A model generated the notes under the pieces. The model ran no database searches. It worked only from the letters and a program-made list of their open reading frames with translations, and was not told the DNA's origin. Below, piece after piece: positions 15,973-43,278 of a stretch of 64,000 bases of DNA. Numbering within the stretch: position 1 is the stretch's first letter; every line of letters starts with the position of its first letter. Source of the stretch: a bacterium (GTDB lineage Bacteria; Patescibacteriota; Saccharimonadia; UBA4664). The position numbers and the translations under genes were made by a program. The stretch lies in contig CP064960.1 in assembly GCA_016699105.1 (NCBI GenBank), positions 264,727-328,726 of the forward strand. The letters run 5' to 3'.

Positions 15973-17346
15973 ATGCAAGATGTGAAGGGGTTGTGGCAAT
16001 CTGTGCTGGGGGACTTGGAGACCACCATCTCTGAGGCTATGTTTAAAACCTGGTTTAAGCAGACCGACATTCTGACCAAGGAAGATGGTCATGTTGTAGT
16101 GGCAGTGCCTAATGCCTTTGCGCAAAAGTGGCTGCGGGATAAATTCCATGGTGAAATCAAAACCGCACTGGCCCGGGCTGACCGGACTATTCAGACGGTT
16201 GATTACAAAATCATCCAAGTACCCAAGGAGCCAGTTAAGCCCGGCCGAGTAGCTCCGGCGACTTTCAAAAAAACGACGGTGGAGCAAATCGCCATTCCGA
16301 CGACGCCAGCCCCGAAAACTAATTTGAACCCACGTTATACCTTCGCCACATTTGTGGTGGGCGGCAGCAATGATTTCGCCCATGCGGCCGCTCAAGCTGT
16401 GGCTAAGAATCCGGGGACTAAATATAATCCCCTCTTTATATATGGTGGCGTGGGTCTTGGTAAGACACATCTCATGCAGGCCGTGGGTAATGAAATTGTG
16501 CACAAGGACCCCAGTAAGCGCATCGAGTATGTGAGTATCGAGAGTTTTACGAACGAATTTATTAACGCTATTCAAAAGAAAAAAAATGACGCGTTTGCCG
16601 ACAAGTACCGCGGGGTCGACGTACTCATAATTGATGATATGCAGTTTTTGGCGGGTAAAGAAAAAACCCAGGACGAATTTTTTCATACCTTTAATGCCCT
16701 CCACCAAGCCAACAAGCAGATTATTATCTCCAGCGATAAACCACCTAAACTCCTGACAATGCTCGAAGATCGCTTGATCAGCCGCTTTGAAATGGGTATT
16801 ACGGTGGACATCCAACCGCCCGACCTTGAGACTCGCTCGGCTATTATTCAAAACAAGGCCGCTTCTCAAGGTATGGTGTTGCCGCTCGAAGTCGTTGACT
16901 TCATCGCCCGTCACGCTCAACATAATATCCGAGAACTTGAGGGAACACTCACCAAGGTATTGGCGGAGCTAGAACACAACAAGGGTACGATGTCGCTGGA
17001 GCGGGTACGATCACTATTGGCTCATGATGCGGCAGCCCGGCCCCGACTACGCGTCACCAATGCCAAGACCATCATGGAACGGGTGGCTCGATATTTCGAT
17101 CTGACAGTAGCCGACCTAGAAGGACCAAAACGCGACAAAGAAATCGTGGTGCCGCGGCAAATCGCTATGTACCTGATGCGAACCGATCTCGATTTGAGTT
17201 TTCCCAAAATTGCAGCAGCGGTCGGTGGGCGTGACCATACTACCGCCATGCACTCAGTCCAAAAGCTCGAGAAACTGGTCGACAATGACGATACGTTACG
17301 TAGTGACATAACAGCCATTCGCGAACAACTCGGATTGGTAAATTAG
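15973..17346 (+). CDS. dnaA: chromosomal replication initiator DnaA
   Basis: 457 aa; Walker A 'GGVGLGKTHL'; AAA+ sensor motifs; C-terminal DnaA-box-binding HTH ('IAMYLMRTDLDLSFPKIAAAVGGRDHTTAMHSVQKL'). Confidence 0.95.
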   Translation: MQDVKGLWQSVLGDLETTISEAMFKTWFKQTDILTKEDGHVVVAVPNAFAQKWLRDKFHGEIKTALARADRTIQTVDYKIIQVPKEPVKPGRVAPATFKKTTVEQIAIPTTPAPKTNLNPRYTFATFVVGGSNDFAHAAAQAVAKNPGTKYNPLFIYGGVGLGKTHLMQAVGNEIVHKDPSKRIEYVSIESFTNEFINAIQKKKNDAFADKYRGVDVLIIDDMQFLAGKEKTQDEFFHTFNALHQANKQIIISSDKPPKLLTMLEDRLISRFEMGITVDIQPPDLETRSAIIQNKAASQGMVLPLEVVDFIARHAQHNIRELEGTLTKVLAELEHNKGTMSLERVRSLLAHDAAARPRLRVTNAKTIMERVARYFDLTVADLEGPKRDKEIVVPRQIAMYLMRTDLDLSFPKIAAAVGGRDHTTAMHSVQKLEKLVDNDDTLRSDITAIREQLGLVN

Positions 17347-24255: not shown

Positions 24256-25539
24256 TTAGACGCCACCGCGGACATCCCAGTGCCAAGGTTCGCGGGGATT
24301 TTTGAGCTCGTAGAAGCCATATTTTTCGCCATTAGCGAGTAGCCACTTATACATACCAGCGCTGGTGTTAGAGCTAAAACTAAAGTCGATGGCTAACCCC
24401 GTTTGGTGATAGGAGTAGCCGGGTCGGCCGGCCATTGGTGGTCCGATTTTGGCCCAGAGATACTCCTGATGAGCCATGGAACGGAATGTAGATGAGGCGG
24501 CTATATCAAAGTTTCCCCAAGTGTTGGCACTACTGTCGCGATACGCGATGGCATCAGTGATCAGTTTGAAAAGCGCTCCAGAGACGCGCGAGTTGACCAC
24601 AGCGTGGCCATCTCCAAACTGATTACACTCTTGATTTGAACATGGGAAATTAGGAATGGCACAAAGACGAATCTTGATTAATTTACCATCATGGTAACCA
24701 TCATGAATACCGGCGTCGGTGGTGCCGTCAGCACAGGCTATGGCTGTGGAATCGTCGTAAATGTGTTCCCAGTCAATTTCGGCTGAAGCTTGACCAGAGG
24801 TAGAGGGGCAATTCGAGGCTGTAGTGCCGGTAGTTTCGCTGGGGATGGAAGCATCTGGCGTAACTGTGCTCGATGGCGGGAATAAATTCTTTTCTTTGAT
24901 ATATTTAATAACTGCTTGCTGGATGGAAATGTTTTTGCTGACGTAATTGGGGTCGGTGGCATAGCCGGCATTGAAAATGGCAGTTATATATTTGGCAGGG
25001 TCTCCGGGGAAATTGAGGGCCGCGGCGTAGCGGCTATTGGCATGGATGAACTGGCCGTAGCCCGCAAAGCCGGCTTCAGCTGTCGGGTACGCCCGAAACT
25101 TAGCCGATACGGTAACTGTTTGACCATTGATGACTTCTTCGGTATTGAGGGTGACGGTATCGCCGGTCCAGTTGCTACCGGCTTTAATGCCAAAGAAGTT
25201 GTTATATTGCCGAGTGAGGAGTGACCGACCATAGCCTGATTCGAGAGCTGCTTGGGCAATAATTGCTTCGTAAGGAATGCCGTATTGTTTGCCGATAGTA
25301 AAGGCTGCCTGAGCATATTTGTCGATAAACTCAGTGAGTGACAGTGTAGCTTCGGCTGCTTCAGTGTTATTTGAGGTTCCTCCAGATGTTGAGCAGGTTT
25401 CTGCTATATAGTTATCGTACCAATAGGTCTCGTTGGTGACTGAGACATCATCGCGATTCCAGATGGCTTGTGCGACGGGCGCTGTGGCTAGTTGGCTCGT
25501 AATAATGAGGGTGAATATGAGGCTGAGGCGTCTGAACAT
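24256..25539 (-). CDS. bifunctional peptidoglycan hydrolase: N-acetylglucosaminidase (FlgJ/LytD-type) plus M15 (VanY-like) D,D-/L,D-peptidase
   Basis: Signal peptide. 'AQAALESGYGRS...NNFFGIK' is the glucosaminidase signature. C-terminal 'GYSYHQTGLAIDF...EPWHWD' is M15 zinc peptidase. Confidence 0.8.
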   Translation of the reverse strand: MFRRLSLIFTLIITSQLATAPVAQAIWNRDDVSVTNETYWYDNYIAETCSTSGGTSNNTEAAEATLSLTEFIDKYAQAAFTIGKQYGIPYEAIIAQAALESGYGRSLLTRQYNNFFGIKAGSNWTGDTVTLNTEEVINGQTVTVSAKFRAYPTAEAGFAGYGQFIHANSRYAAALNFPGDPAKYITAIFNAGYATDPNYVSKNISIQQAVIKYIKEKNLFPPSSTVTPDASIPSETTGTTASNCPSTSGQASAEIDWEHIYDDSTAIACADGTTDAGIHDGYHDGKLIKIRLCAIPNFPCSNQECNQFGDGHAVVNSRVSGALFKLITDAIAYRDSSANTWGNFDIAASSTFRSMAHQEYLWAKIGPPMAGRPGYSYHQTGLAIDFSFSSNTSAGMYKWLLANGEKYGFYELKNPREPWHWDVRGGV

Positions 25540-29266: not shown

Positions 29267-31155
29267 TTAAGCTCCTTGCTCCGACGGGGCAACTGCTTCA
29301 TCTGGTGCGGGAGTGGCATTAGCTTTGTCAGCAGGGTTGGTACTGATCAAACTGGCTTCAGTCTCGGAAGCTAGAACTCGGATAATGACGTGGTTGAGTC
29401 CAGCAAAGAACAGGCCTTCACCCACTGGGAATTCGGTAAGCCGAGCTTTTTCCTCATTGGTAAGTTTAAACGTTTCACCAATGATATCGACGGCGGACGG
29501 TGCTTGCTTGAGGAGAAGTTGCAAGGAAGAGTTGGCCACTACCGCCCGCCCCATTTTGTTGCTCAGGAAATCCTCAACGTCTTGCGAGATTGTTGTCAGA
29601 CCCAGGAAATATTTACGAGCCCGTTTGGCTAGACTAAACATGAAGGCTGCTGAATCGTCGTATTTCATGAGCTGCCAAGCTTCGTCAACTATTAAGATGC
29701 GCTTGCGGCGATCAGATTTGACTTTATTCCAGATATAATTGAGTACGATATACATGCCAATGGGGCGAAGTTCGTCTTCTAGGTCGCGGATGTTAAAGAC
29801 GAGGAAGGGGTTGTCAATCTCGACGTTTGATTGTTCAGAGAAGATTCCCGAGAATGTACCGGTAGTAAATTTGCGAAGTCGCATGGCCAGATCTGGACCG
29901 TTGCCAGTCATTGACGCTAATGTGTTGTATAGGTCGTTCATGGTTGGCGGGGTGGCATTGTGTGTGAGTGGATCGCGGGTGATACCGGCACGGGCGTAGG
30001 TGTTGATGATAGCAAGGTCGAGATCAGCGTCTTCACTCGGTGTGAGATTGGTCATGCTGGTGGCACCAGTGGAGTTGGAGACAGTGGCACCACCAATCAT
30101 CAGGCGCAAGAGCCCATGGAGCGTGATGATATTAGCCTGGAGGGCATTGTCGGCTTCGTCTTGATCAAAAACGCGTGGTAAATCAAAAGGGTTGATGCGC
30201 GTCTGACTAGCCAGCGATAAGCGTAAGTACGTTCCACCGACAGCTTCACAAAGGGTTTTATACTCGTTTTCTGGGTCGATCACAATGATCTCGATGCCCA
30301 TCATGAGCGAGCGTAAAGCCTCGAGCTTAATTGAGAACGATTTACCAGCTCCGGATTTGGCGAAGACAACCATATTGGCGTTTTCGAGAGAGAAGCGGTC
30401 GAATAAGACGAGACCATTGTTGTGGCGGTTCAGGCCGTAGAGGATGCCTTCGTTGCGACTAAGTTCGGCAGAAGTGAACGGGAAGCTGGTCGACAAGGCA
30501 CCGGTATCCATGTTGCGGGAGATTTGGAGCTGGTCATTCGCGATGGGGCTGGTAGAATTGAAGCCCTGCTCCATTTGCATGGTAGCCGCTTTGGTGTACA
30601 CCAACGATTGGCCGAAGATACCCTCGATCTTGCGATTGAGGTCGGTCATGGCATCGAGCGAGTCGGCGTACATAGTTAGATACATACCAAATCGAAAGAA
30701 GCGCTCTTCTCCGACTTGGAGCTTGTCACGCAACTCCTCAGCATCCTGGAGTGCAGCCTCGAGACCAGGGTCACGTACTTTGCCCTTCTCTTCATTAATG
30801 GCATAAGACGCTTCCATTTGGGTGACTTTTTACGCAGGTTATCGAGGACTACCCGCGACTCAACGGGGTAAATGTAGAGCGAAATGTCGATAATCTCGTC
30901 GAGGTTGATGATGGGCGATAACCAACCGGTGAATACTTGGCGAGGGTAACCGTAGACGTATAGGGTTTTGCAATAGCGTTTGCCGATGCGGACGTAGTTG
31001 GCATCAATTTCGAGAGACGACGGCGCGATGAGATCGCGCATGGTGATGACGCCCTGACGATAGATGAGCTCAGCTTCGCGTTGTTCTAGAGCCTGCTGGT
31101 AGGCAGCCAGAGCCTGGGGGTCGACTTTGGGTTTGGATGGGCCGAATAATCCCAT
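29267..31155 (-). CDS. virB4: VirB4/TrbE/CagE-family T4SS ATPase (main body), interrupted by one frameshift near 30815-30830
   Basis: ORF 30676..31155 gives 'IDANYVRIGKRYCKTLYVYGYPRQVFTGWLSPIINL' (the CagE_TrbE_VirB region). ORF 29267..30817 gives Walker A 'VVFAKSGAGKSF', Walker B 'ILIVDEAWQL' and 'NMDTGALSTSFPFTSAEL'. Confidence 0.8.
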
Positions 31156-31748
31156 TAGAACGGACCTCCTTCGATAGTACTATGGGGCGCGCGGCCATCG
31201 CCTTTGAGGACGACTGGTCCGGTCAGTTGTTCGGCATCAATCAACTTTTGATTGTGGGCGACGTCGGGGTTGTACCAGGTATAGTACAGATCGACGAGTT
31301 CTTGCGTGCCAAGAGCTAAGGCTCTAATACCAATTTGCCCCAAACCGCTGGTGACCAACGCCATACGCTCAGACAACTCTTGCTTGTAGGCTTTGAAATC
31401 CTCTTCGGTGACCGTGATGTCTGCTGGTGTACTGTAGGCATTTTTGAGGTTTTTCACGAGCGCTGGCGTTTTGCCTGAAACAACTCCAGGGAAATATGGC
31501 ACCACAATGTAGATTTGCTTGTCCATAATGTTGACCTCGTCGACCAACGATTTGACGTTGGCGATGTAGTCGTCCATGAGGGCACCTAATAGTTCGTTAG
31601 CTTGCTCGGTGCGCTTGGTCTGCATACGCTCGATGTAGGCCGAAAGGTCAATACGTTCGGAACGGATAACTATTTGAATCGGGAAATGAAGTGAATTGAG
31701 GAAGCTCTGATACGCCATCTCAATGCCTTGTTGTTCCTGGCTACTCAT
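31155..31748 (-). CDS. VirB4 N-terminal domain encoded as a separate ORF (stop/start overlap TAATG with the next piece)
   Basis: 'FPIQIVIRSERIDLSAYIERMQ...IYIVVPYFPG' matches the VirB4 N-terminal 'lqvhvlRrpvdl...ylt' region that normally precedes the 'IEIDxDYxRIG' segment. Confidence 0.5.
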   Translation of the reverse strand: MSSQEQQGIEMAYQSFLNSLHFPIQIVIRSERIDLSAYIERMQTKRTEQANELLGALMDDYIANVKSLVDEVNIMDKQIYIVVPYFPGVVSGKTPALVKNLKNAYSTPADITVTEEDFKAYKQELSERMALVTSGLGQIGIRALALGTQELVDLYYTWYNPDVAHNQKLIDAEQLTGPVVLKGDGRAPHSTIEGGPF

Positions 31749-32807: not shown

Positions 32808-35800
32808 CTAAAGATTATTGTTAGTCTTGTATCCAAGAACAATTTTTTCGAGTGCTTTTCGATGTTGTTCTTCTGCGCCTGGGGTACTTCCAAATTGTGC
32901 CTTGAATCTGTCAAGTACAGCTTGTCGTGGAGTGCCCATACTTTTGCCATCGGCATTAAACAAGAACCTATACATGGCATCGTAGTCCGCAGGAGTCTGC
33001 TTTGGATTTATATTACCTTCAGTCATTATCTGCTTGATGTTGGATACCGATTCGCCGATCATCTTACTTCTCTTGGAGTCAAGATCTGCGAAATCAGGAT
33101 GTGTTGATGGTACTGGAACAGGCGCCAAAGCGAATTCAAACAAATGCTCTTTAGTCTTGTAATCCATGGCAGCAACTTCACCGGCTTTGGCATTTTCAAA
33201 GGCGGCTGCTGGACCCTTGACGATGTCTGGTCGCTTATCAGCATTCACCGTTGAGACGACCCGCTGGAAAAAGCTGTTGGCTGAAAAGTCAGTATCACCA
33301 GCGGCACGGGCGTCGGCTTCCAGATTGGCAGCGATGGTTCGATCGACGCGTACGTTTCCATCGGTACCGAATGTTTCTTTTAGTAATTCACGAACTTTTT
33401 CAGAACCACTGGTTGTCAGTGCTAGTGCTGAAGTGAGAGCCGTAAACTTTGCCCGGTCGCCCGTTTTGAACGCATCAACCGCTTCAGTGTATATTTTATC
33501 TTTATTTCCACTATTGGGTTTTAGGGTGCTTATCGGAACCTCCATACCTGTACTGGGATCCAGGAACATACTGCGTCCAGCTTCAGCCACGAGGCTTTCA
33601 AACTGTCTTTCGCTCGCTGCTTTTCGGGCTGTATCAACTTTTTCGCCATAAGTTTTATCGGTTTGGCTTAATCGAACTTGTTGATCAGCTTCTTTGGCGG
33701 CAAGCGATGCCTCTGAGTCTCGTCGTGCCATTTCGAGCTGAGCGGTAGCTGCTGCTTTTGTCGGTGATTTATATGCCCGTTCTTGAGCGATTAGTGTTCC
33801 TTGAGCAGCAGCTTCAGATCTTTGTCCTGTGTCAATTCCGGCGAGTGTTGCCGAGCCAATGACATCAGCTTGGGCACTATCGGCCAGGCTTGTTAGAATC
33901 TCGGCTTGAGCTTTTTCACGATTAGCTGATGGGTTTCCAGTTGTCATCCCGCGGAGAGCGGCTTCATTATTCAAGTAGTCTTCCATTGCTTGCTCGTCGC
34001 TCACTCCGGGGGCGAATGCTCTAGCTTGAGCAAGTAAGGCAGCTCCGGCAGTAGCTCCGATAGCGGCTGTTACTGACTGGTTTTTGCCAACTGCTTGTCC
34101 GATAGAACCGGCTTGACCCTGCGCTGCCGTCAAATAGGCGCCTTCTGCGCTTGCGTCATGATAGATACGACTTGCATCGGCATCAGACACAGATCCAGGC
34201 AGGTTGGCAGCAATATTTAATTCTGCCTGTCGCTTGATGGCGTCGTCTGATATACCTGCCAGGCTGTGTTCTTCGGCTTTTTCCCGAGTCATGCCGGTAT
34301 TGCTAGCAAGCCGTTGTTGTATATCCTTTTCACGTATTCTTTCAGATTCTTTGGCAATCCTGATTTCCCTTTACCTTTTTCGAAACCGTCAACTTCACCA
34401 CGAGCTTTGGCGATTTGTAATCGAGTGTTGAAGCCAGCTTCGCCCGATCCTTGATAGCAATTTTTTGCTGATATCAGCACGTACATTAGCTCGATCAGCA
34501 GCCGATGCTGTGCTTGGGTCTATGCCGTTTTTAATTAAGACCCTATCTTCTGCTTCGGTTACTTCTTGCAGTCGTTCACCTACGGCCATGTCTTTGGTGA
34601 GTTGATCATTGGTAGCTTTGAAGGTGGCATCGTCAAGTTGCTCGGCGGTTGACGGCCGAGTAGGACTTTGTCCATTGTATCCACGGACAGATCTGACGGC
34701 ACCAGTACGCTGGGCACTGGTTGCAACGGCCGAATCTTCACCGCGCACACCGGCAGCGATTAAGCGATTTTGAGACTTGGTGTCCGCGAAGTGTCGCCAT
34801 TGTTAGCTGCCAAGATATCGTCATTTTCAATCTGATTTCCTTTCTTTTGGCTCATGACTTGACTGCCAATGCTCTCTTGGGCTTCTCGTCTGGCCGCTTG
34901 TTCAACCTCACGATCGGACATGTGGCCTTCAGTTGTACCTGGATGGCTACTCTGTTTCGACGTGCCTGACGCGCCGCCGATAGATTGCCGCGTTGTTGTA
35001 AGGCAGCTGCATCCATGATGGTAGCAGCTGATTCGTCGCGGTGAGTATTGTAGTCGATTTGACCTTGACGAAGTTTACCGCCTTCATCGAGCACGCCTTC
35101 TCGAGCCGAGACGCGAGCATTGGTTTGACGGTACTGCTGAATCCGATTTTTAGCATTATTGCGTTGATCATCGGTGGCTGTCAGGGGATTAATGCCCATG
35201 TGCAATAACTCAGCATCTTCGAGATGCTTCTGGCCGTTAATCCGACCCTCTGTCTTGCCTTTATCGTCACTGAGACTATCGATCTGGCTTTTGCGGGCAT
35301 CTTCGATAAGATCGCCGGTACTAGGCGCGTTGCCATTATATTTCGATTCAGCAGTTCCTGTCCCTGAGCCATAGAGACTGGCAGCGCTTTTGCGACTAGA
35401 TTCCAAGCCTGCTTGATAGCTGCCTTTGGCAAAATTTACCATTTTTCGGGTAGATCTGCGCCTTCGATGGCATCGACGGTTTCCATTAGTCCAGCTCGAT
35501 CAGATCGGCCTTTCGTAATGCCCTGTAGTGCTGCGGTAGTTTCTGCGTCGACGCGTTGCTTGTTGGTTTCACCGGTACGAGTAGCGCCAGCTAGTTTGGA
35601 AGCATTGATAGCACCTTGGGTTTTAAAATGCAGCGCTCGCAGCTTCTTCAAATTTAAGTTTTTCAGGTCATTACCCTTACCGCCGAGAAAGCCGCCATGG
35701 CCAGCTGATTTCATTGCGACACGCTGCCTGAAATTCTTTGATAATTTTCCGCCAAGGCTAGTTGGCTGTTCTCGATCGATTTCTTTGGCGCGTTGGACAG

Positions 35801-36032
35801 CATTGTGCTGTCGATTAGCTCTGCGACTTTCATAAGCTCCAGCCAGTTGGTTGCCGAGCCTTGCCGTACCTTGTTTGTTGAGGAAGTTTTGGGCTTTGTT
35901 AACTCCCTTTTGTGCAGCAGACATAAATGTTCCAGCGCCCTGTGCTGTTCCTGGTACTAAGAAAAGCGGAATATAGAGACCAGCTAGGGCTACAGCTACT
36001 TGAATTGGTTCGCTTAATAGATCTGAGAGCAT
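32808..36032 (-). CDS. large (~1070 aa) N-terminally membrane-anchored, low-complexity/coiled-coil T4SS-associated protein split into four ORFs by about three frame changes
   Basis: Contiguous same-strand ORFs 35436..36032, 34852..35442, 34395..34748 and 32808..34292 abut or overlap. N-terminal TM 'VAVALAGLYIPLFLVPG'. Ala/Gln/Lys/Arg/Thr-rich repeats. No catalytic motifs. Confidence 0.4.
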
Positions 36033-37189
36033 CAGAATCCTCCCGCTACAGCCGAAAATAACCTACCGGCTTCGAAAAGTAATACGATCAAAGGGTACAT
36101 CAGAATGAGTCGGATGAGATTATCGAGCCACTTGCTGAAATACTTGCTAGTGTTGGGCAAAATGTATGTCAATGCCGCGAGCGGACTAATGACGATAAGC
36201 ACAAGAATTAGCACATTACGAAGAATAAGCGTTGCAAATGTTGCTACTAAGCCGATGAGTATGCCAAGTAATATTGGCCACAGCATGCCCGTGTAAGCAG
36301 TAAAGCCAGTGACGCCGAGCAATACTCCACCGCCTGCTGTGTAGACAAGTTCCGATACCGGCGAAGTAAAATCTATCTTTGGATCAGGGATGAGCGGTGC
36401 AGTTATCGCGACGATACCTTGGCCGAGTATATTGCCTAGATCCACCATGAATACGCATATGTACCATGATAGCGGCATGAGGATTGCAGTTGCGATGAGG
36501 CGTGGCAGGGTTTTCTTGATAGTGTAATTGTCATAGCCAATAGCTGTGCCGAAGATGATAACCAGGAACAAGAGTATCAGAACTACACTGGCAACATTTC
36601 GCATGCCGGACCAGATATCATACAGTGGCTTGATGTCAGCGGCATCTTTATCAAGCGGAGCTTGTTGTAGGAGCGGAATAATTACAGTATTACGAATCCA
36701 ATCAATAACACCTAACGACCATTCAATGGTGCCACAGATAAGCCAAGTGAAGCCTTTGCCAGCATTACACTTGACCGGGTCTTCGTTATCGCCGTCTTCG
36801 CCCTCGTCAACGGCGTTGGCTAATCGTCCCGAGACCTCTTGGCTTCCTAGTGTCAAAGAACCAACTTGCTCGCCATCAACAACATATTGACCGCTGGTAC
36901 CATTGGCACTCACGTTTTCAATCGAAATAGATATATTTGCTTCGGGGTCAGTACCGCCAAGGTACTCTTTCTTGGGCTCTGAATTGTCATTTGGATTGGG
37001 AGTAAAGTCTATGGACAGTGTGGGGTCAGTCGCGAATCCGGTACAGCGGATGGTAGTGGTGTTTACCCAAACACAACTCGTTGGTGGGACGTCAACGGCT
37101 TGAGCCGTGCCTGAAAGCACAGTTAAACCAATCATGGGAGCAAATACTGCCCACGCCATCAGCGCAATGAGAGTCCACCTCGACTTCAT
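36032..37189 (-). CDS. VirB6/TrbL-like polytopic T4SS channel protein
   Basis: Start assigned to 'MKSRWTLIALMAWAVFAPMIGLTVLSGTAQA' (signal peptide). The annotated upstream Met at 37447 is less plausible. Extracellular domain, then at least 5 TM helices at the C-terminus. Confidence 0.55.
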   Translation of the reverse strand: MKSRWTLIALMAWAVFAPMIGLTVLSGTAQAVDVPPTSCVWVNTTTIRCTGFATDPTLSIDFTPNPNDNSEPKKEYLGGTDPEANISISIENVSANGTSGQYVVDGEQVGSLTLGSQEVSGRLANAVDEGEDGDNEDPVKCNAGKGFTWLICGTIEWSLGVIDWIRNTVIIPLLQQAPLDKDAADIKPLYDIWSGMRNVASVVLILLFLVIIFGTAIGYDNYTIKKTLPRLIATAILMPLSWYICVFMVDLGNILGQGIVAITAPLIPDPKIDFTSPVSELVYTAGGGVLLGVTGFTAYTGMLWPILLGILIGLVATFATLILRNVLILVLIVISPLAALTYILPNTSKYFSKWLDNLIRLILMYPLIVLLFEAGRLFSAVAGGF

Positions 37190-37220
37190 GTTCAAAATTG
37201 TAACATGAGCGTTTTGACTT

Positions 37221-37598
37221 TTGCTATTGGTGCTTCCTATAATGTGTCTAATGGAAAGACCAGCTGATGCTGCCGCCGGATCGTGCGGTACAACTACCGG
37301 AGGCCTACCTGGATTATGGGATGGGCTCAATTGTGATGGCGCGGGCAACATTGAGTTGGCTGCTGTGTCCGATGTATTTGTGATTGTGGGAAATGTACTC
37401 CGGATTTTGATTGCACTATCAGGTGCGATTGCCGTGATTATGATCATCGTGGCGGCAATTTACTATGTGACGTCTATGGGTGATCCAGGCAGAGTGAAGA
37501 AAGCTAAGGATATGCTGACAAATCTAGTAATTGGCTTAGTGCTTTTGATAGGCGCCTATGCGGTGGTTGATTTTGTGACGAAAGGAATCGCCGGATGA
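37221..37598 (+). CDS. VirB2/TrbC-like pilin paralog 1
   Basis: Two hydrophobic helices separated by 'SMGDPGRVKKAKDM'; 125 aa; first of four tandem paralogs. Confidence 0.5.
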   Translation: MLLVLPIMCLMERPADAAAGSCGTTTGGLPGLWDGLNCDGAGNIELAAVSDVFVIVGNVLRILIALSGAIAVIMIIVAAIYYVTSMGDPGRVKKAKDMLTNLVIGLVLLIGAYAVVDFVTKGIAG

Positions 37599-37912
37599 AT
37601 TTTGATTGGCTTGTAGCCACGTCCGTATCGGCGGAAGAAATTGGGTTGCCCAATGATGTAGGCACCATCGGTGATGGTTTGAGTAATGTCATATTGCTCT
37701 TGATGGGGCTCATTGGTGGCTTGGCACTCATTGCTCTCATATATGGGGGCGTTCAGTTTACCCTATCGGCCGGTGATCCGGGCCAGACGAAACAAGCTAA
37801 AAATACAATTCTATACGCTGTCGTAGGAATAGTACTGGCAGCTTCGGCTTATATGCTGGTGTGGTTTATAACGCATAATATTGGTGACGGGTTCGATTTC
37901 TTTTCGGGCTAA
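37595..37912 (+). CDS. VirB2/TrbC-like pilin paralog 2
   Basis: 'LIGGLALIALIYGGVQFTLSAGDPGQTKQAKNTILYAVVGIVLAASAYML'. Confidence 0.5.
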   Translation: MNFDWLVATSVSAEEIGLPNDVGTIGDGLSNVILLLMGLIGGLALIALIYGGVQFTLSAGDPGQTKQAKNTILYAVVGIVLAASAYMLVWFITHNIGDGFDFFSG

Positions 37913-37936
37913 CACCGCAATTAAGGAGTAAGGTAC

Positions 37937-38266
37937 ATGGAACAAAGTTTTCAACTCATGTTAGCGAGCGCTTCAGACGTCATTGGTCAGAGTGCGCAAA
38001 ACGCGTGTGGCACATCGTGTAATACCAATCTGTCGGTGACGGCTATTTTGGCGAATATTGCCAACGTTTTGGTGTTTATTGTCGGTTCGGTGTCGGTGAT
38101 TATGATTATCATTGGTGGTTTGCGCTATGTATTGTCGCAGGGTGATACTGGCGCGGTCAGTAAGGCCAAAAATACGATATTGTACTCGGTCGTTGGGGTT
38201 GTGGTAGCTGTAATCGCGTATGCCATTATTCAATTCGTGACAGACATACTCTCAAAAACGGGTTAG
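37937..38266 (+). CDS. VirB2/TrbC-like pilin paralog 3
   Basis: 'VFIVGSVSVIMIIIGGLRYVLSQGDTGAVSKAKNTILYSVVGVVVAVIAYAI'. Confidence 0.55.
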   Translation: MEQSFQLMLASASDVIGQSAQNACGTSCNTNLSVTAILANIANVLVFIVGSVSVIMIIIGGLRYVLSQGDTGAVSKAKNTILYSVVGVVVAVIAYAIIQFVTDILSKTG

Positions 38267-38344
38267 TTTGCGCTTACGCTTAGGCTTATGCTACGCTAAT
38301 TGCAACTTGGAATATCATAAAGGTAGTAAGGAGACAACCTGTCG

Positions 38345-38788
38345 ATGAGTATTATGTCATTAACCCAGAAAACAGCGGTGTCGCTGCAGGCACTAGCCCT
38401 AGTCTTCGGGTTTGGGTTCGGTACAGTAGCGGCCGCGGTAGCGTTGAGCGCTCCGGCACAAGCAGCCTGTTCCGATGGCTTTGATTCGGCGGACCCACTC
38501 AACTCGGGTGCTAGTTGTGCCAAGGCTAACGGTACCAGCAACAATTTGTTCGCTGAAGGCGGCGTGTTCCAAACCGTTGCCAACACCTTGGTGTTCTTGG
38601 TAGGTGCCGTTTCGGTCATCTTCCTGATCATCGGTGGTTTGCGCTATGTCATCTCCCAAGGTGAAAAGAGCAACGTTGAGCAAGCTAAAAACACCATCCT
38701 CTACGCAGTTATTGGTATTGTGGTGGCCGTCATATCCTTTGCTTTGGTGCAGTTCGTGATCAGCGCCTTGGCCAAGAGTAGCGCCTAA
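38345..38788 (+). CDS. VirB2/TrbC-like pilin paralog 4
   Basis: Signal-like N-terminus, Cys-containing mature N-terminus, 'VFLVGAVSVIFLIIGGLRYVISQGEKSNVEQAKNTILYAVIGIVVAVISFAL'. Confidence 0.55.
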   Translation: MSIMSLTQKTAVSLQALALVFGFGFGTVAAAVALSAPAQAACSDGFDSADPLNSGASCAKANGTSNNLFAEGGVFQTVANTLVFLVGAVSVIFLIIGGLRYVISQGEKSNVEQAKNTILYAVIGIVVAVISFALVQFVISALAKSSA

Positions 38789-38815
38789 TTTAAGCCAATC
38801 GTTCGTACTAAAAAA

Positions 38816-38837
38816 CCCCGGGAAACCGGGGCTTTTT
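38816..38837. terminator. bidirectional rho-independent terminator
   Basis: 'aaaaaa-CCCCGG-gaaa-CCGGGG-cttttt' between the convergent pilin gene (+) and hsp20 (-). Confidence 0.6.
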
Positions 38838-38851
38838 AGTAGGGGGCTGGT

Positions 38852-39289
38852 CTAGATGACCGGCTTGACTTTGATTTTCTTGACCTTGTCTTGGGCGACC
38901 TTGGGGATGGTAACTGTCAGTACGCCGTCCTTGAGGGAAGCGGCCGCCTTTTCGGCAATCGTCGAAGTCGGTAAGATGACTGAGCGGCTAAAAGCACCCC
39001 AGTAGCATTCTTGGACGTAGTAGTGCTCGCGGTCGACTTCGCGGTTTTCGACACGCTCGCCCCGGATGGTGACGACGTCTTCGGCGACCTCGATATCAAT
39101 TTTGTCGGGAGTCACACCGGCGATAGGGGCTTTGATAACAACGTTTTCTTTGGTCTGATAAACGTCGACCGCGAGCTGACCCTCGGCTTCGGCCATCCAA
39201 TCGTCTTCACCCTCCATCGGGGCGTCGAGGAAGTCGTCTTGAAGGACGTTGTCTTGTGGTTCGGGGGCGGATTTCTTGCCTGGCATCAC
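38852..39289 (-). CDS. hsp20: Hsp20/alpha-crystallin family small heat-shock protein
   Basis: 'DVYQTKENVVIKAPIAGVTPDKIDIEV...LKDGVLTVTIPK' alpha-crystallin domain; 145 aa. Confidence 0.85.
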   Translation of the reverse strand: MMPGKKSAPEPQDNVLQDDFLDAPMEGEDDWMAEAEGQLAVDVYQTKENVVIKAPIAGVTPDKIDIEVAEDVVTIRGERVENREVDREHYYVQECYWGAFSRSVILPTSTIAEKAAASLKDGVLTVTIPKVAQDKVKKIKVKPVI

Positions 39290-39397
39290 GGCGGGGGGTT
39301 CTCCAAAAATTACTTAGGCTACAAATATGTAGGCGCTGAGTGCGTCTTTGCATTATTATAGTAGGAATCTAAGGGAAAAAGCAAGGTATCTCAAGGT

Positions 39398-40066
39398 ATG
39401 CTCGGTCAGTTGATGAGATTATTGGTGCCGTTGGCCTGCGCTGGTTGCCAGCGTGAGGGTTCGGTGTTGTGTCAGCAGTGTGGTGCGCAGTATCGCTTGA
39501 TGACTCAACAGTGTGGTGGCTGCGGTGTGGCGTCACGGCACGGCCGAACGTGCGAACGTTGCCAAAAGTCGGCTGGCAGTGGCGTACATCAATTGAGGGG
39601 GGTTGGTGTGGCATTGCGCTACGACGGCCCGGTTAAGCAGGCAGTGCTCGACTTGAAATTCAAAGGCCAGCGCTGGGCGGCTGACGATCTAGCTAGTTGG
39701 TATCAGGACTTGATACCGGCAGAGGCATTTGACGTGGTTACGTGTGTACCGATTAGCCCGGAACGCTATCGAGAACGGGGGTATAATCAGAGTGAATTGT
39801 TGGCAAAGGCGGTGGCGCGGCAATTGCATATCCCCTATCGCTCGTGCTTGGGACGTTATTCTAATAGCCATCAGCTGGGACTAGGTCGAACGGACCGATT
39901 GAAACAAGTCGCAGGTGTGTTTTACTCGACGATTCAGAGACCACCCAAGCGAGTGCTGATTGTGGACGATGTGGTGACTACTGGCGCCACGCTCAATGAA
40001 TGCGCCAGGCTGTTGCGGGCGAGCGGCGCGACAGAGGTGTGGGGCTTGGCTTTGGCCCGGCATTAA
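39398..40066 (+). CDS. comFC: ComF family protein (ComFC-type phosphoribosyltransferase with N-terminal double zinc ribbon)
   Basis: Cys pairs 'CAGCQ...CQQCG...CGGCG...CERCQ'; PRTase motif 'VLIVDDVVTTGATLNECA'. Confidence 0.75.
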   Translation: MLGQLMRLLVPLACAGCQREGSVLCQQCGAQYRLMTQQCGGCGVASRHGRTCERCQKSAGSGVHQLRGVGVALRYDGPVKQAVLDLKFKGQRWAADDLASWYQDLIPAEAFDVVTCVPISPERYRERGYNQSELLAKAVARQLHIPYRSCLGRYSNSHQLGLGRTDRLKQVAGVFYSTIQRPPKRVLIVDDVVTTGATLNECARLLRASGATEVWGLALARH

Positions 40067-40088
40067 TGCTATGATGTCAACGTTTTCT

Positions 40089-40178
40089 GGAGAGGTACCC
40101 AAGAGGCTGAAGGGCGGGTTTGCTAAACCTGTAGGGGGCGTAAGCTCTCGCGAGAGTTCGAATCTCTCCTCTCCGCCA
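40089..40178 (+). tRNA. tRNA-Ser (anticodon GCT)
   Basis: Manual fold: acceptor GGAGAGG/CCTCTCC, anticodon stem CGGGT/ACCTG with loop TTGCTAA, long variable arm, T-loop TTCGAAT, 3' CCA encoded. Confidence 0.85.
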
Positions 40179-40400
40179 GGAATTATTGATTTTGTCTGAA
40201 AATACGCGGCCGTTTTCGGAAGCAATATAGTGCAAAAATGGCCGAGATTCTATAAGCGGGGAACTTGCCAAGGTTTTCAGTACCTGAAAGCTCAATAGCG
40301 TTTTTGAGCGCTCGGGTAGTGCCACCGCAACGCACTGGCTGTGCGTTGCGGTGGGTGGTGACGGGTTGTTTCGGTCGGTACATGTTTTCCTTTGATCGAG

Positions 40401-41282
40401 TCAGACCTCGTAGCCCAATGCCAGGAGTCTGAGTACTGTGAAGGCGAATCCCCGTCTCACCCAGATGATTTCTGGGGTTGCGTCCACCATTCTCTCGGAA
40501 TGCGCCCAGGTGGCACTGATCACACTCGGATACTTGCCCGCGATGTCTGCGGGATCAGCCGTCATGATCATGTCGAGTAGCAGGCTACCATTCTGACCAG
40601 ACTGACCAGTGCCGTCTGTCCAATGGTTGAGGTGACCCGAGAACATCCAGAACTTCTGGACGATGTCCGCGGGGTTCATGTTGGCGGCTGTCGCGAGATC
40701 GGTCAGCCGCACCCAGCCGAGATTGCTGCGCCGGCGTTCACGAGGCTTGCGAACATTGGGCTTCTGGCCGGATTCGAAAGCCTGGCGGACGTAATTGATA
40801 CGCGGGATCGGCACTGTCCGGCCAAGTTCGCTCTGGTGGATCTGTCGGGCGCAACTCAGGCGCAGCCTGCCAGATTGGCGGCCGACGCCTGGCGCTACAA
40901 CCACTTCACTGCCATCTGCCGTTACACACCCGAAGGGTTCGGGGTTTATGAACAGTGTGCGAGTGGCACTGTGCTTGTCGATGTACCACAGCTCCCTCAA
41001 CTCATCGGTGACCCCGATGATCGAGTTCTTGCAGTAGGGCGTCTCCATGACCCATAGGCCGTTGGGGACGACGTGCGGGGTTTGAATCAGTGTGACATCA
41101 GACTTCCGGTACCGCCATCCCTGGGTCTGGTAATCCCAGTACATTGTCGCTCCGGGGCGGACAACCCATTCGTGATCGACGTAAGTACGTCCCTTGAGTG
41201 AGTTCGTCATCAGAATCAACTCCATGCGGTAAGCCGGATACCAAGTGAAACTACCGCCATCCCACCTGGCTTGTGTTGTCAA
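40401..41282 (-). CDS. hypothetical protein
   Basis: 293-aa ORF; no recognisable motifs; first gene 3' of tRNA-Ser. Confidence 0.3.
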   Translation of the reverse strand: MTTQARWDGGSFTWYPAYRMELILMTNSLKGRTYVDHEWVVRPGATMYWDYQTQGWRYRKSDVTLIQTPHVVPNGLWVMETPYCKNSIIGVTDELRELWYIDKHSATRTLFINPEPFGCVTADGSEVVVAPGVGRQSGRLRLSCARQIHQSELGRTVPIPRINYVRQAFESGQKPNVRKPRERRRSNLGWVRLTDLATAANMNPADIVQKFWMFSGHLNHWTDGTGQSGQNGSLLLDMIMTADPADIAGKYPSVISATWAHSERMVDATPEIIWVRRGFAFTVLRLLALGYEV

Positions 41283-41370
41283 AAAGCTGTTATATTTTAA
41301 ACTAATTAGTTATAATTGTCAAATCTTGCGGTAAGATTTGAATGATCATGTGTGCTACCATTGAAACACG

Positions 41371-43278
41371 ATGTGGGCTGTGGTGCTGCAAATATTGGCG
41401 GTAGCTGTCGGTTGGCAAGTGGTTCGCCAATTGCCAGTGACTTGGCGAAGATTGGAAGCGGCTGCTGCTAGTGTGGCTGTCGGTTTTGCGTTGTGTGCCT
41501 GGGTGTTTTTCGCCGGGGCGATAACGGTGGGCTGGAATCTGACGATGGCCGTAGTGCCCGCATTGCTGGTGCTGGCGGTGGGCGTGAGCTGGTGGCGGCT
41601 TCCGGCGCGCTGTCAGGTGACGAGTACGCCCTACACCCACAGTCGCTGGGGTATGGTCGTGAGCTGGTTGGTGGTTGTGCCAGTGACGGCTTGGCTGATG
41701 TGGCTGACGGCCGAAAGTTATCAGTTTCCGGCAGCCAATGGCGCCTGGTACGCAAATGGCAATGTCTGGGGGGATGCGCCCTTACATGTGAGTCTGGTAA
41801 ACCAGTTTGCTATCGGTGACAAACTTGATCTGGTATCGCCGGTATATAAGCAAGTCGCACTCACCTACCCGATTATGAGTGATCTATGGTCGGCGGTGAG
41901 CCGGCGGCTGGGCGGCGATTGGGTGGTGAGATTGATGTTGCCCTCGGCGGTTATGTTGTTGGCATTGCTACAGCTATTATTTAGCTTTGCATATCGCCTA
42001 CTTGGATCGGCACGGGGGGCAGGCTTGAGCTGGCTCATGATTGTATTTTCGGGCTCGGCGTTGAGTGGCTGGCGGGTTGGTGGTGTCTTGGTGACTCAAG
42101 GCTATGAAGCCTTTTTGGTTGAGATTCGGCATATTGGCGATAATTATCTCAACTTTATTTACTCTCATCCCCTGCCCCAACGGGCGTATTTGTTTGGTAT
42201 GCCGTTGTTTATTGTGGTGATGACAGTCGCTCTGGAGCTATGGCGGCAGCGGAAACAGCGGGCTGCCCATGCGCGGGCAATTGGTGCGGTGGTGGCAGGT
42301 GTCATTTTGGGCTTAATGCCATTGGTGCACACTCATAGCTTCATGGTGAGTGCGGGAGCGTTTGTGCTGGCTACTGGGGCAATGTGGTGGGCCAGGCGAC
42401 GGGTGCCTGCTGGCTGGTGGCAGATGATAATTGTGGGATTTGGACTGGCCTTGCCGCAGATTTGGTGGCAATTTAGTACCACCTACCACGGTGGGTTTAG
42501 CCGCTGGATCTGGGGTTGGAAAATGGCTGATTTTTATCCTGATCCGACGGCGAACTGGTGGCTGTTTTGGATAGTAAATACCGGATGGCTGTTTGTGGTC
42601 CTGCTGGGTGGATGGTGGTGGCTGCGCCGGCAGCGGGCAAAGGCTGAGCTGTGGATTGTGTATGCGGCGGCAGTAGGCATATTTGCGGTGTGTAACGTGT
42701 ATGTGTTTCAGCCGAGTATGTGGGACAACATGAAGTTTTTCGAATATGCTTTTTGGCTTATTATGATTGTGGCGGCCGGAATTATGGCGCCGTGGCTGAA
42801 AGCGTGGGTGGGTCGGATGATTGTCGGTGGTCTCATGTTAAGCTTAACCATTATGGGTTTTTGCTTGCTGTTTTTGGCGGCACCCCGGCAAACCTATGAG
42901 TTGTTGAGTGCCGATGAAGTGACATTTGGCCAGCATATGCAACGTGATCTACCCGAGAATGCCTATGTGCTCGTCGGAGACCGGCATAATCACCCTATAA
43001 CCATGCTGGCTGACCGCAAGGTATTGATGACGTTTGCTGGCTGGTATAACTTGTACGATGGCAATTGGATTCAAACCTACACTGACCGTGGGATAATGTT
43101 GCGCGGCGAAAGTGGTGCCGAAGATTTGATCGCCACGTATGGGCTAAACTTTGTGGTATTTAGTGACGGCGAGATCTGGTCTAATCAGGTGAATCAACAG
43201 TTTTTTGCTGACCGCTACCGGTTGTTTGCCAATGAAGGGGGTTGGTGGGTGTACGACTTGCGGCCAGCGATTCAATGA
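41371..43278 (+). CDS. polytopic membrane protein, probable GT-C-type (polyprenyl-phosphate-sugar dependent) glycosyltransferase
   Basis: 635 aa with at least 12 predicted TM helices. Immediately followed by, and overlapping, a Ppm1/DPM1-like GT2 gene, as in the Ppm1-PMT pairing. Confidence 0.45.
   Translation: MWAVVLQILAVAVGWQVVRQLPVTWRRLEAAAASVAVGFALCAWVFFAGAITVGWNLTMAVVPALLVLAVGVSWWRLPARCQVTSTPYTHSRWGMVVSWLVVVPVTAWLMWLTAESYQFPAANGAWYANGNVWGDAPLHVSLVNQFAIGDKLDLVSPVYKQVALTYPIMSDLWSAVSRRLGGDWVVRLMLPSAVMLLALLQLLFSFAYRLLGSARGAGLSWLMIVFSGSALSGWRVGGVLVTQGYEAFLVEIRHIGDNYLNFIYSHPLPQRAYLFGMPLFIVVMTVALELWRQRKQRAAHARAIGAVVAGVILGLMPLVHTHSFMVSAGAFVLATGAMWWARRRVPAGWWQMIIVGFGLALPQIWWQFSTTYHGGFSRWIWGWKMADFYPDPTANWWLFWIVNTGWLFVVLLGGWWWLRRQRAKAELWIVYAAAVGIFAVCNVYVFQPSMWDNMKFFEYAFWLIMIVAAGIMAPWLKAWVGRMIVGGLMLSLTIMGFCLLFLAAPRQTYELLSADEVTFGQHMQRDLPENAYVLVGDRHNHPITMLADRKVLMTFAGWYNLYDGNWIQTYTDRGIMLRGESGAEDLIATYGLNFVVFSDGEIWSNQVNQQFFADRYRLFANEGGWWVYDLRPAIQ

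Follow-up and report, generated by a model that had tools for sequence, protein, structure and literature searches.

A tandem array of four diverged PF18895 pilin-like paralogs in the chromosomal type IV secretion locus of a Saccharimonadia genome

The classical pilins of type IV secretion systems (T4SSs), VirB2, TraA and TrbC, carry a long signal peptide and two helices joined by a basic loop, and are encoded close to VirB6 and VirB4; tandem pilin paralogs are, to our knowledge, uncommon in classical T4SSs. The Mbov_0395-type pilin-like gene of Mycoplasma integrative and conjugative elements (ICEs) is believed to be single-copy and to be carried by a mobile conjugative element that also encodes a relaxase, and we know of no demonstrated pilus for its product. 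In the Patescibacteria, arrays of pilin genes are the norm. The survey of Quinonero-Coronel 2025 (PMC12102498; this paper and PMC10633639 are drawn on here from passages of their text) reports 441 VirB2 arrays of 2–11 pilin genes in 383 Patescibacteria assemblies, commonest especially in Saccharimonadia and Microgenomatia, with within-array identities that average 25% and reach a maximum of 54%. In Southlakia epibionticum ML1 six PF18895 genes, SEML1_0014–0019, lie between a VirB6-like gene and an Hsp20 gene (Wang 2023, PMC10633639); each was called growth-defective or essential by transposon sequencing (Tn-seq; Tables S1 and S2 of that paper), and SEML1_0020, the syntenic HSP20 gene, is also essential. 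Here we describe an array of four pilin-like genes in a 64-kb window, by which we mean the whole stretch of 64,000 nt of contig CP064960.1 that was analysed.

The array shares its Pfam family, PF18895 (T4SS_pilin), with SEML1_0014–0019 and the 441 surveyed arrays, and its surroundings are those of the Southlakia locus: in both, an origin-proximal T4SS cluster follows dnaA-dnaN-recF, and the pilin genes diverge from a VirB6-like gene and are followed by a convergent HSP20 gene, a phosphoribosyltransferase (PRTase)-like gene and tRNA-Ser, so that the order dnaA-dnaN-recF-T4SS-pilins-HSP20-PRTase-tRNA-Ser is the order of SEML1_0001–0022 (PMC10633639). Paralog identity is likewise low, 27–49% here against the average of 25% and maximum of 54% in PMC12102498. 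Southlakia has six pilin genes and this locus four. The locus fits the definition of a patescibacterial T4SS pilin array (at least two tandem PF18895 or VirB2-like genes near virB4 and further components of the MPF_FATA type), and as a kind of feature the pilin array is already known and typical of Saccharimonadia. We read it as an operon of ancient, non-redundant pilin-like subunits of a chromosomal, origin-proximal T4SS of monoderm type that Saccharimonadia at large have kept, the counterpart of SEML1_0014–0019, and regard this reading as probable.

The four-gene array is real. The open reading frame (ORF) listing for 35–41 kb of the window contains four consecutive plus-strand ORFs of 125, 105, 109 and 147 amino acids (aa), the first spanning 37221–37598 and the others as in Table 1; these are the lengths of the initial annotation of this DNA, and three of them stand, gene 1 being almost certainly 115 aa long. 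Membership of PF18895 was taken as a score of at least the 26.6-bit gathering threshold over most of the 71-position model, and all four translations exceed it (E-values 3e-8 to 2.5e-12), with alignments that start at model position 4, 5 or 10 and end at 70 or 71. The doubt whether any pilin family would be matched in profile searches is thereby removed. A scan with the family hidden Markov model finds pilin domains in these four ORFs only within the 64-kb window, and these matches therefore place the array far beyond chance. There are more than 5,900 homologs; PF18895 is precomputed on all of those listed, and the named ones are from Saccharimonadia. Genes 2–4 are identical to QQR52861–63 (IPG36_01940–01950), which are annotated 'hypothetical protein' and lie on a 1.32-Mb contig of a metagenome-assembled genome (MAG).

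The proteins show the following features. First, hydropathy and charge maps give every paralog two hydrophobic helices with a short, positively charged Lys/Arg-rich loop between them, so the common helix-loop-helix pilin architecture that had been proposed holds for all four, as does the helical hairpin of a VirB2-like pilin; for gene 4 the AlphaFold2 (AF2) model agrees, with helices 74–103 and 108–146 at a predicted local distance difference test (pLDDT) score of 86–90 (mean pLDDT 73.8). From the positive-inside rule we infer a topology with the N-terminus outside and the basic loop inside. Second, the paralogs are strongly diverged from one another, with pairwise identities of 28–35% in the window except for genes 3 and 4 (49%), and gene 3 is the nearest paralog of gene 4 (45–49%). 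The motif said to be shared by all of them, IIGGLRYV.SQG...AKNTILY, is complete in genes 3 and 4 only; gene 2 retains the half that reads AKNTILYAVVGIVLA, and gene 1 departs further from the motif. Third, the N-terminal heads differ completely. Gene 1 has an acidic head of about 40 aa with conserved Cys12/Cys28 and the most diverged core, gene 2 is without Cys, the head of gene 3 has a CxxxC pair (Cys24/Cys28), and that of gene 4 has conserved Cys42/Cys58 and a GAxCxxANGT motif ahead of the helix-loop-helix core. The Cys-containing head attributed to paralog 4 is thus present, but a conserved pair also occurs in genes 1 and 3. Finally, by hydropathy only gene 4 has a signal-like N-terminal hydrophobic segment, a putative long Sec-type signal peptide (residues 1–40, ending APAQA/ACS), and genes 1–3 have no cleavable signal. 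The form of about 147 aa dominates the matches of the family.

Such a run of short ORFs could be an artefact or a product of decay, either fragments of one frameshifted larger gene, as the initial annotation had allowed, or redundant duplicates on their way to loss; homopolymer indels in the window do split large neighbour genes. Each of the four ORFs, however, holds one complete PF18895 domain (model positions about 4–70 of 71) with its own start and stop, genes 2–4 are identical to proteins from independent assemblies, the gene structure is kept in short-read assemblies of other samples, and purifying selection is strong. We give this explanation practically no credence, and regard it, in both versions, as refuted by these points.

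Four further lineages (L001–8, L009–11, L012 and L013–14) have these four genes too, arranged in the order seen here and flanked by the VirB6-like gene and HSP20. Ortholog identity is 88% for gene 1, 83% for gene 2, 81% for gene 3 and 97.5% for gene 4 (ranges 96–100% for gene 4 and 74–93% for genes 1–3); across lineages, paralogs share 27–49% identity as against 81–97% for orthologs. The ratio of nonsynonymous to synonymous substitution rates (dN/dS) is 0.01–0.12 over all four genes, 0.03–0.07 for gene 1 and 0.01–0.035 for gene 4, with dS near or beyond saturation. By these comparisons the duplications are old and every copy has been maintained, gene 4 under the greatest constraint.

These observations bear on the suggestion that tandem amplification serves antigenic variation of the conduit tip, the paralogs being alternative versions of one subunit that are interchanged or exchanged so as to evade recognition by host or phage, or to switch hosts. 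PMC12102498 raises the idea and draws the parallel to Bartonella and Anaplasma. Tandem diverged T4SS pilin copies are also present in the Trw system of Bartonella and the VirB systems of Anaplasma/Ehrlichia and are interpreted, in the summary of that paper, as surface-variation or host-adaptation devices in animal pathogens. The wholly different heads of the four paralogs, presumably exposed, would suit the suggestion. Unlike those systems, the orthologs here are stably conserved under purifying selection, each paralog is retained as a distinct ortholog in at least four lineages, and in a relative, Southlakia, the six pilin genes are individually growth-defective or essential (PMC10633639), which fits non-redundant parts rather than interchangeable variants. 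A repeat scan of the array, moreover, finds no long identical tracts, no silent cassettes and no invertible-element repeats; its only repeats are coding cores of 66–75% identity, and apart from the terminator no inverted repeat is strong, the other inverted pair being 15 nt long with arms 1.2 kb apart within genes 1 and 4. A single operon promoter is common to genes 1–3. The array has the hallmarks of neither the pilE/pilS type nor the invertible-promoter type of phase- or antigenically variable locus, and no diversifying selection is seen at a dN/dS of 0.01–0.12.

The sole evidence that leans toward antigenic variation is a strain-level mosaic. Comparison with the strain L001 shows 100% identity over 35659–36736 and 38192–39433, with 245 of 1,455 positions (16.8%) differing in the intervening 36737–38191; in this block lie the N-terminus of VirB6, the control region, genes 1–2 and the greater part of gene 3, and gene 4 lies wholly outside it. 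The allele of the window is seen again in the short-read contigs L094 and L095, from independent assemblies, which are identical to the window over 36703–38402 and differ from it by about 4.5% over 38403–39242 (gene 4 and HSP20). In the window the gene 1–3 haplotype is that of one strain and the flanking sequence that of a second, so that it is either a natural recombinant or a chimeric MAG consensus; on either account two haplotypes of genes 1–3 circulate, in separate samples. The differences in the block are, however, overwhelmingly synonymous (dN/dS 0.03–0.07), the VirB6 part has about 40 nucleotide changes but only about 6 aa changes, and the aa changes are conservative and not clustered in the heads. 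The simplest reading of the mosaic is that a diverged allele was imported neutrally, and not that new surfaces were selected for. A diversity-generating or hypermutation origin of the block was ruled out, the changes being mainly synonymous. We consider antigenic variation very unlikely: stable orthologs, purifying selection and the lack of switching repeats in the array argue that the paralogs are non-redundant parts.

The start of gene 1 is almost certainly ATG 37251 and not TTG 37221, because the ten upstream codons are not conserved in orthologs and overlap a promoter that scores 11/12; the NCBI Prokaryotic Genome Annotation Pipeline (PGAP) call in the source genome is likewise 115 aa (QQR52860.1). 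The VirB6-like gene starts at ATG 37189 on the minus strand, a position conserved in four lineages, and not at the top of its 471-aa ORF. The gap between the two divergent starts is therefore 61 bp and not about 31 bp as first given, and the picture of a compact divergent promoter region survives in spirit. Within the gap, a plus-strand candidate sigma-70-type promoter, P1, has the −35 hexamer TTGACT (37214–37219), an 18-nt spacer and the −10 hexamer TATAAT (37238–37243), 7 nt before the gene 1 ATG, and a minus-strand extended −10 element, TGTTACAAT (TGnTACAAT; plus-strand 37197–37205), lies 7 nt ahead of the VirB6 ATG. Both sets of hexamers and their 6–7 nt spacing to the ATGs are kept in L001, L009, L012 and L013 while the surrounding bases vary, and no Shine-Dalgarno sequence precedes either ATG. 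This conservation and geometry suggest that both mRNAs are leaderless. The start of gene 2 overlaps the stop of gene 1 (ATGA), which suggests translational coupling of the two, and gene 3 has its own Shine-Dalgarno sequence (AAGGAG, 37923–37928).

A second promoter-like element, P2, occupies the spacer before gene 4, with TTTGC (38267–38271), TATGCTA (38287–93), a TATCAT box (38313–18) and the Shine-Dalgarno sequence AAGGAG (38328–33). Its hexamers TTGCGC and TACGCT are 18 nt apart in the window, and TTGCNN and TANNNT are 17–18 nt apart across lineages. TTTGC, TATG(G/C)TA and AAGGAG do not vary across ten lineages that share only 55–97% identity in their gene 4 proteins, which suggests an internal promoter for gene 4, and the motif precedes the last pilin gene in all eight of the eight closest genome loci. 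The array is closed by a single terminator 3′ of gene 4, a 16-nt inverted repeat with 94% complementarity that is common to the pilin operon and the convergent HSP20 gene. An Rfam scan recovered only tRNAs in the window and no match in the pilin array.

Gene 4 is probably the major subunit, given its predicted Sec signal, highest conservation, own candidate promoter and ribosome binding site, last position and the dominance of the form of about 147 aa, and genes 1–3 are probably non-redundant minor or accessory subunits. We propose that each product would enter the membrane as a helical hairpin, with the Lys/Arg-rich loop cytoplasmic and the N-terminal head and C-terminus outside. Gene 4 would be exported by Sec, with cleavage of its long signal peptide, and supply the bulk of the subunits; genes 1–3 would be transcribed from the leaderless promoter back-to-back with the VirB6-like gene, genes 1 and 2 being translationally coupled, and would supply low-copy accessory subunits of the base, adaptor or tip. 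The VirB4-like ATPase would extract all four pilins from the membrane, and on the VirB6-like platform these would be built together into a single heteromeric filament or conduit reaching the host bacterium. The VirB4 extraction and VirB6 platform steps follow the established VirB2, VirB4 and VirB6 models of Gram-negative systems. The analysis establishes the family, the architecture, the anatomy of the operon, the conserved gene order, purifying selection and the higher conservation of gene 4; in this scheme we infer promoter function, leaderless mRNAs, membrane topology, subunit ratios, co-assembly and even that there is a pilus.

Several points weigh against this reading. First, none of the patescibacterial T4SSs has been seen to make a pilus (reviews PMC12857230, PMC11665869). 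Second, the proposed major and minor roles rest on conservation, signal and promoter anatomy, and the scheme assumes export of the 30–45-aa heads of genes 1–3 without a signal peptide. Third, the essentiality called by Tn-seq in Southlakia could be inflated by polar effects and by few insertion sites in short genes. Fourth, the comparisons made here do not demonstrate a relation to classical VirB2. Membership of PF04956 was taken as a score of at least its 27.9-bit gathering threshold, or significant profile-profile similarity to genuine VirB2/TrbC; genes 1 and 2 give sub-threshold scores of 17 and 19.5 bits (E 0.007 and 0.001) and genes 3 and 4 give no match, and when the family profile (A3) is compared by hhalign with an alignment of seven annotated VirB2/TrbC proteins (A5) the result is non-significant (probability 0.18%, E 0.34), although the stretch it aligns is the equivalent helix-loop-helix in both families. 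Foldseek against the PDB returns only generic, non-specific hairpin matches. A family-profile sequence search of the PDB gives 0 matches, and a tblastn search with gene 2 against 72,556 plasmids finds no match; an Agrobacterium VirB2 sequence that served only to probe the plasmid collection proved 99% identical to annotated virB2 genes, and the annotated genes were then used. The four proteins are PF18895 members that resemble VirB2 and fall short of the thresholds for the classical VirB2/TrbC family, so that the label 'VirB2-like' is apt for the architecture and the Pfam family name and not for PF04956 or hhalign similarity.

With the VirB2/TrbC/TraA pilins (PF04956, e.g. Agrobacterium VirB2) the products share small size, two hydrophobic helices, a short basic loop, a long signal peptide (here putative and in gene 4 only) and adjacency to VirB6 and VirB4 homologs. 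In contrast to the Gram-negative VirB2 systems, the cell here is a monoderm, the scanned ORFs yielded no VirB5, VirB7, VirB9 or VirB10, a set of essential paralogs stands in place of a single major pilin, genes 1–3 have no signal peptide by hydropathy, and there is no indication of cyclisation. Among curated families other than those of Pfam, the nearest is NCBIfam NF045849 (Mbov_0395 family), the pilin-like conjugal transfer protein of Mycoplasma ICEs (Mbov_0395/MMCAP2_0565). All four paralogs align to its full 80-position model, gene 2 at 41.5 bits against a cut-off of 40 and genes 1, 3 and 4 at 32.7, 26.1 and 28.3 bits; the VirB4-like ATPase of the locus matches the mycoplasma ICE VirB4 model (214 bits), and both systems are of the monoderm (MPF_FATA-related) type. 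The differences are that the genes here form a chromosomal array, with three of the four paralogs below the NF045849 cut-off, and that neither a relaxase nor a coupling protein was recognised in the ORFs scanned. Whether patescibacterial pilin-like genes are native or borrowed is left open in PMC12102498; the NF045849 matches together with the VirB4-like match to the mycoplasma model hint that they may be native to monoderm (MPF_FATA-related) T4SSs rather than borrowed from diderm ones.

The non-significant fold and profile comparisons with genuine VirB2 also favour a different explanation, in which the products do not form a pilus at all and are small channel components spanning membrane or wall, or lipid-associated stalk elements, that resemble hairpin-like pilins only in shape. 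T4SSs of Gram-positive type normally lack a pilus and none has been imaged in Patescibacteria (PMC12102498 and the reviews), and the nearest curated family outside Pfam comes from the wall-less mycoplasmas. Against this, the PF04956 cross-matches (E 0.001–0.007) are weak but consistent and fall over the same hairpin, homologs carry precomputed PF04956 co-matches (also in Table S2 of PMC10633639), the long signal peptide, two-helix core, basic loop and VirB6/VirB4 adjacency make up the classical pilin signature, and the Cys-pair heads suggest an exposed, extracytoplasmic domain. We judge a non-pilus role unlikely, though worth keeping in view, and retain the pilin-like subunit operon as the preferred reading. 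A more elaborate form of that reading is an ordered heteropolymer in which gene 4 makes an invariant shaft, genes 1–3 are essential low-copy subunits in the adaptor and tip roles of the missing VirB5, the universally linked HSP20 acts as their dedicated chaperone, and genes 1–3, the VirB6 N-terminus and the promoter are exchanged as a cassette through recombination between strains; this we put forward as doubtful. If true, a monoderm cell would here have a multi-pilin T4SS filament of a new type and a genetically defined host-contact module.

The initial annotation took tandem copies to be uncommon for T4SS pilins, which does not hold for this group, given the 441 arrays of PMC12102498 and our own count. 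In the latter, pilin domains were counted in the largest tandem array of each of 79 species-representative loci, almost entirely from MAGs of Candidatus Saccharimonadia or Saccharibacteria: arrays of six genes are found at 32 loci, of five at 20, of seven at 10, of four at 6, of eight at 5, of three at 2 and of ten at 1, and a single gene at 3. At least three genes are therefore present in 76 of the 79 loci; four to eight are the norm, and the four-gene array lies at the low end of the size range among its relatives. The nearest lineages have five genes, with one further gene 1-like copy ahead of genes 1-2-3-4, and across the 79 loci polarity is conserved, the first gene being most often gene 1-like and the last nearly always gene 4-like. 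A convergent HSP20 gene lies just downstream in 74 of 76 related arrays and has its terminator in common with the array at almost every Saccharimonadia locus covered, a PRTase-like gene follows in 63 of the 76, and a divergent VirB6-like gene is upstream in at least 53 related loci. Two PF18895 domains are naturally fused in one protein in three homologs of the family alignment A3 (P0021, P0048 and P0091), consistent with paralogs that work side by side. The passages of PMC10633639 and PMC12102498 drawn on here contain no account of how the promoters are laid out, of the conserved gene order, of the higher conservation of the last gene, of the almost universal linkage to HSP20 or of the mosaic between strains. 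Outside the window, the source genome has a further, solo pilin gene, IPG36_04680 (P0079), whose 247-aa product joins a Pro/Thr-rich linker to a core like that of gene 4 and resembles the non-essential solo pilin SEML1_0024 of Southlakia.

Table 1. Features of the pilin array and its immediate flanks, in coordinates of the 64-kb window
Feature	Coordinates	Strand	Evidence and remarks
VirB6/TrbL-like polytopic membrane protein, 385 aa	36032–37189	−	weak PF04610 TrbL match (E 0.0076); orthologs carry PF19590 TrbL_3
Divergent control region, 61 bp, two back-to-back candidate promoters	37190–37250	.	promoter scan and ortholog conservation
Pilin paralog 1, 115 aa (QQR52860.1, IPG36_01935)	37251–37598	+	PF18895 34.0 bits; ortholog-based start
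Pilin paralog 2, 105 aa (QQR52861.1)	37595–37912	+	PF18895 47.1 bits; NF045849 match; exact match P0055
Pilin paralog 3, 109 aa (QQR52862.1)	37937–38266	+	PF18895 37.9 bits
Spacer with promoter-like element P2, 78 bp	38267–38344	+	conservation upstream of last pilin gene
Pilin paralog 4, 147 aa	38345–38788	+	PF18895 36.3 bits; QQR52863.1 is 144 aa, from second ATG
Bidirectional intrinsic terminator	38806–38841	.	terminator scan; GC-rich 6-bp stem, A and T tracts either side
HSP20/alpha-crystallin small heat-shock protein	38852–39289	−	PF00011 E 1.5e-18; convergent with array

The tie of the diverged tandem paralogs to a T4SS cluster, proposed from the outset, is borne out by the neighbouring genes. 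The VirB6/TrbL-like protein has a signal peptide (MKSRW...AQA) and is presumed to be the assembly platform of the pilus or channel; farther upstream on the minus strand are PrgI, a VirB3-like protein of the same cluster, a VirB4-like ATPase (conju_CD1110 316 bits; mycoplasma VirB4_plasma 214 bits) about 6.5 kb from the array, and a cell-wall hydrolase. This hydrolase, a 427-aa protein with N-acetylglucosaminidase and VanY D,D-carboxypeptidase domains (24256–25539, minus strand), is probably the wall-remodelling (VirB1-like) component of the cluster. The array lies about 20 kb from dnaA (15973–17346), which is followed by dnaN and recF (through 22329); cumulative GC skew climbs monotonically across the whole window with no turn at dnaA, despite a dnaA-dnaN-recF order as in Southlakia. 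Downstream of the array are HSP20, for which a role as dedicated chaperone of the hydrophobic pilins is speculative, a ComF-like phosphoribosyltransferase and tRNA-Ser(GCT) (40088–40177). Two large neighbours are interrupted in the window: a gene of about 1,076 aa downstream of VirB6, intact in L001, is represented by ORFs 32808–34292, 34852–35442 and 35436–36032, and the VirB4-like gene (29267–31748) looks split, its 516-aa ORF spanning model positions 288–730 only. The single-base differences from L001 in these two regions (32808–36032 and 29267–31748) are nearly all deletions, mostly in short homopolymer runs, and the split genes look like long-read assembly errors rather than pseudogenes. 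Directly after tRNA-Ser(GCT), a segment of about 1.2 kb (40187–41371) with a 293-aa ORF (40401–41282, minus strand) that has no Pfam match is absent in L001 and present in L005, and in L094 up to the contig end (window position 40680); it is a strain-variable insertion at the tRNA gene. Elsewhere in the window, a giant 2,446-aa ORF (6156–13496, minus strand) has PA14, GLEYA and RHS-repeat domains and may encode a polymorphic toxin or a surface adhesin of the epibiont.

Epibiotic growth depends on the patescibacterial T4SS, which has neither a relaxase nor a coupling protein and is unique among T4SSs of monoderm type in having pilin genes. As a kind of system the locus is not new; comparison of its anatomy across genomes yields hypotheses for the published arrays that could be tested in the genetically tractable Southlakia system. 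These are that the paralogs are fixed, ordered and non-redundant parts and not antigenic variants, that the last, Sec-dependent gene encodes the major subunit and possibly has its own promoter, that a leaderless promoter region in common with VirB6 drives the first genes, and that the linkage to HSP20 is almost without exception.

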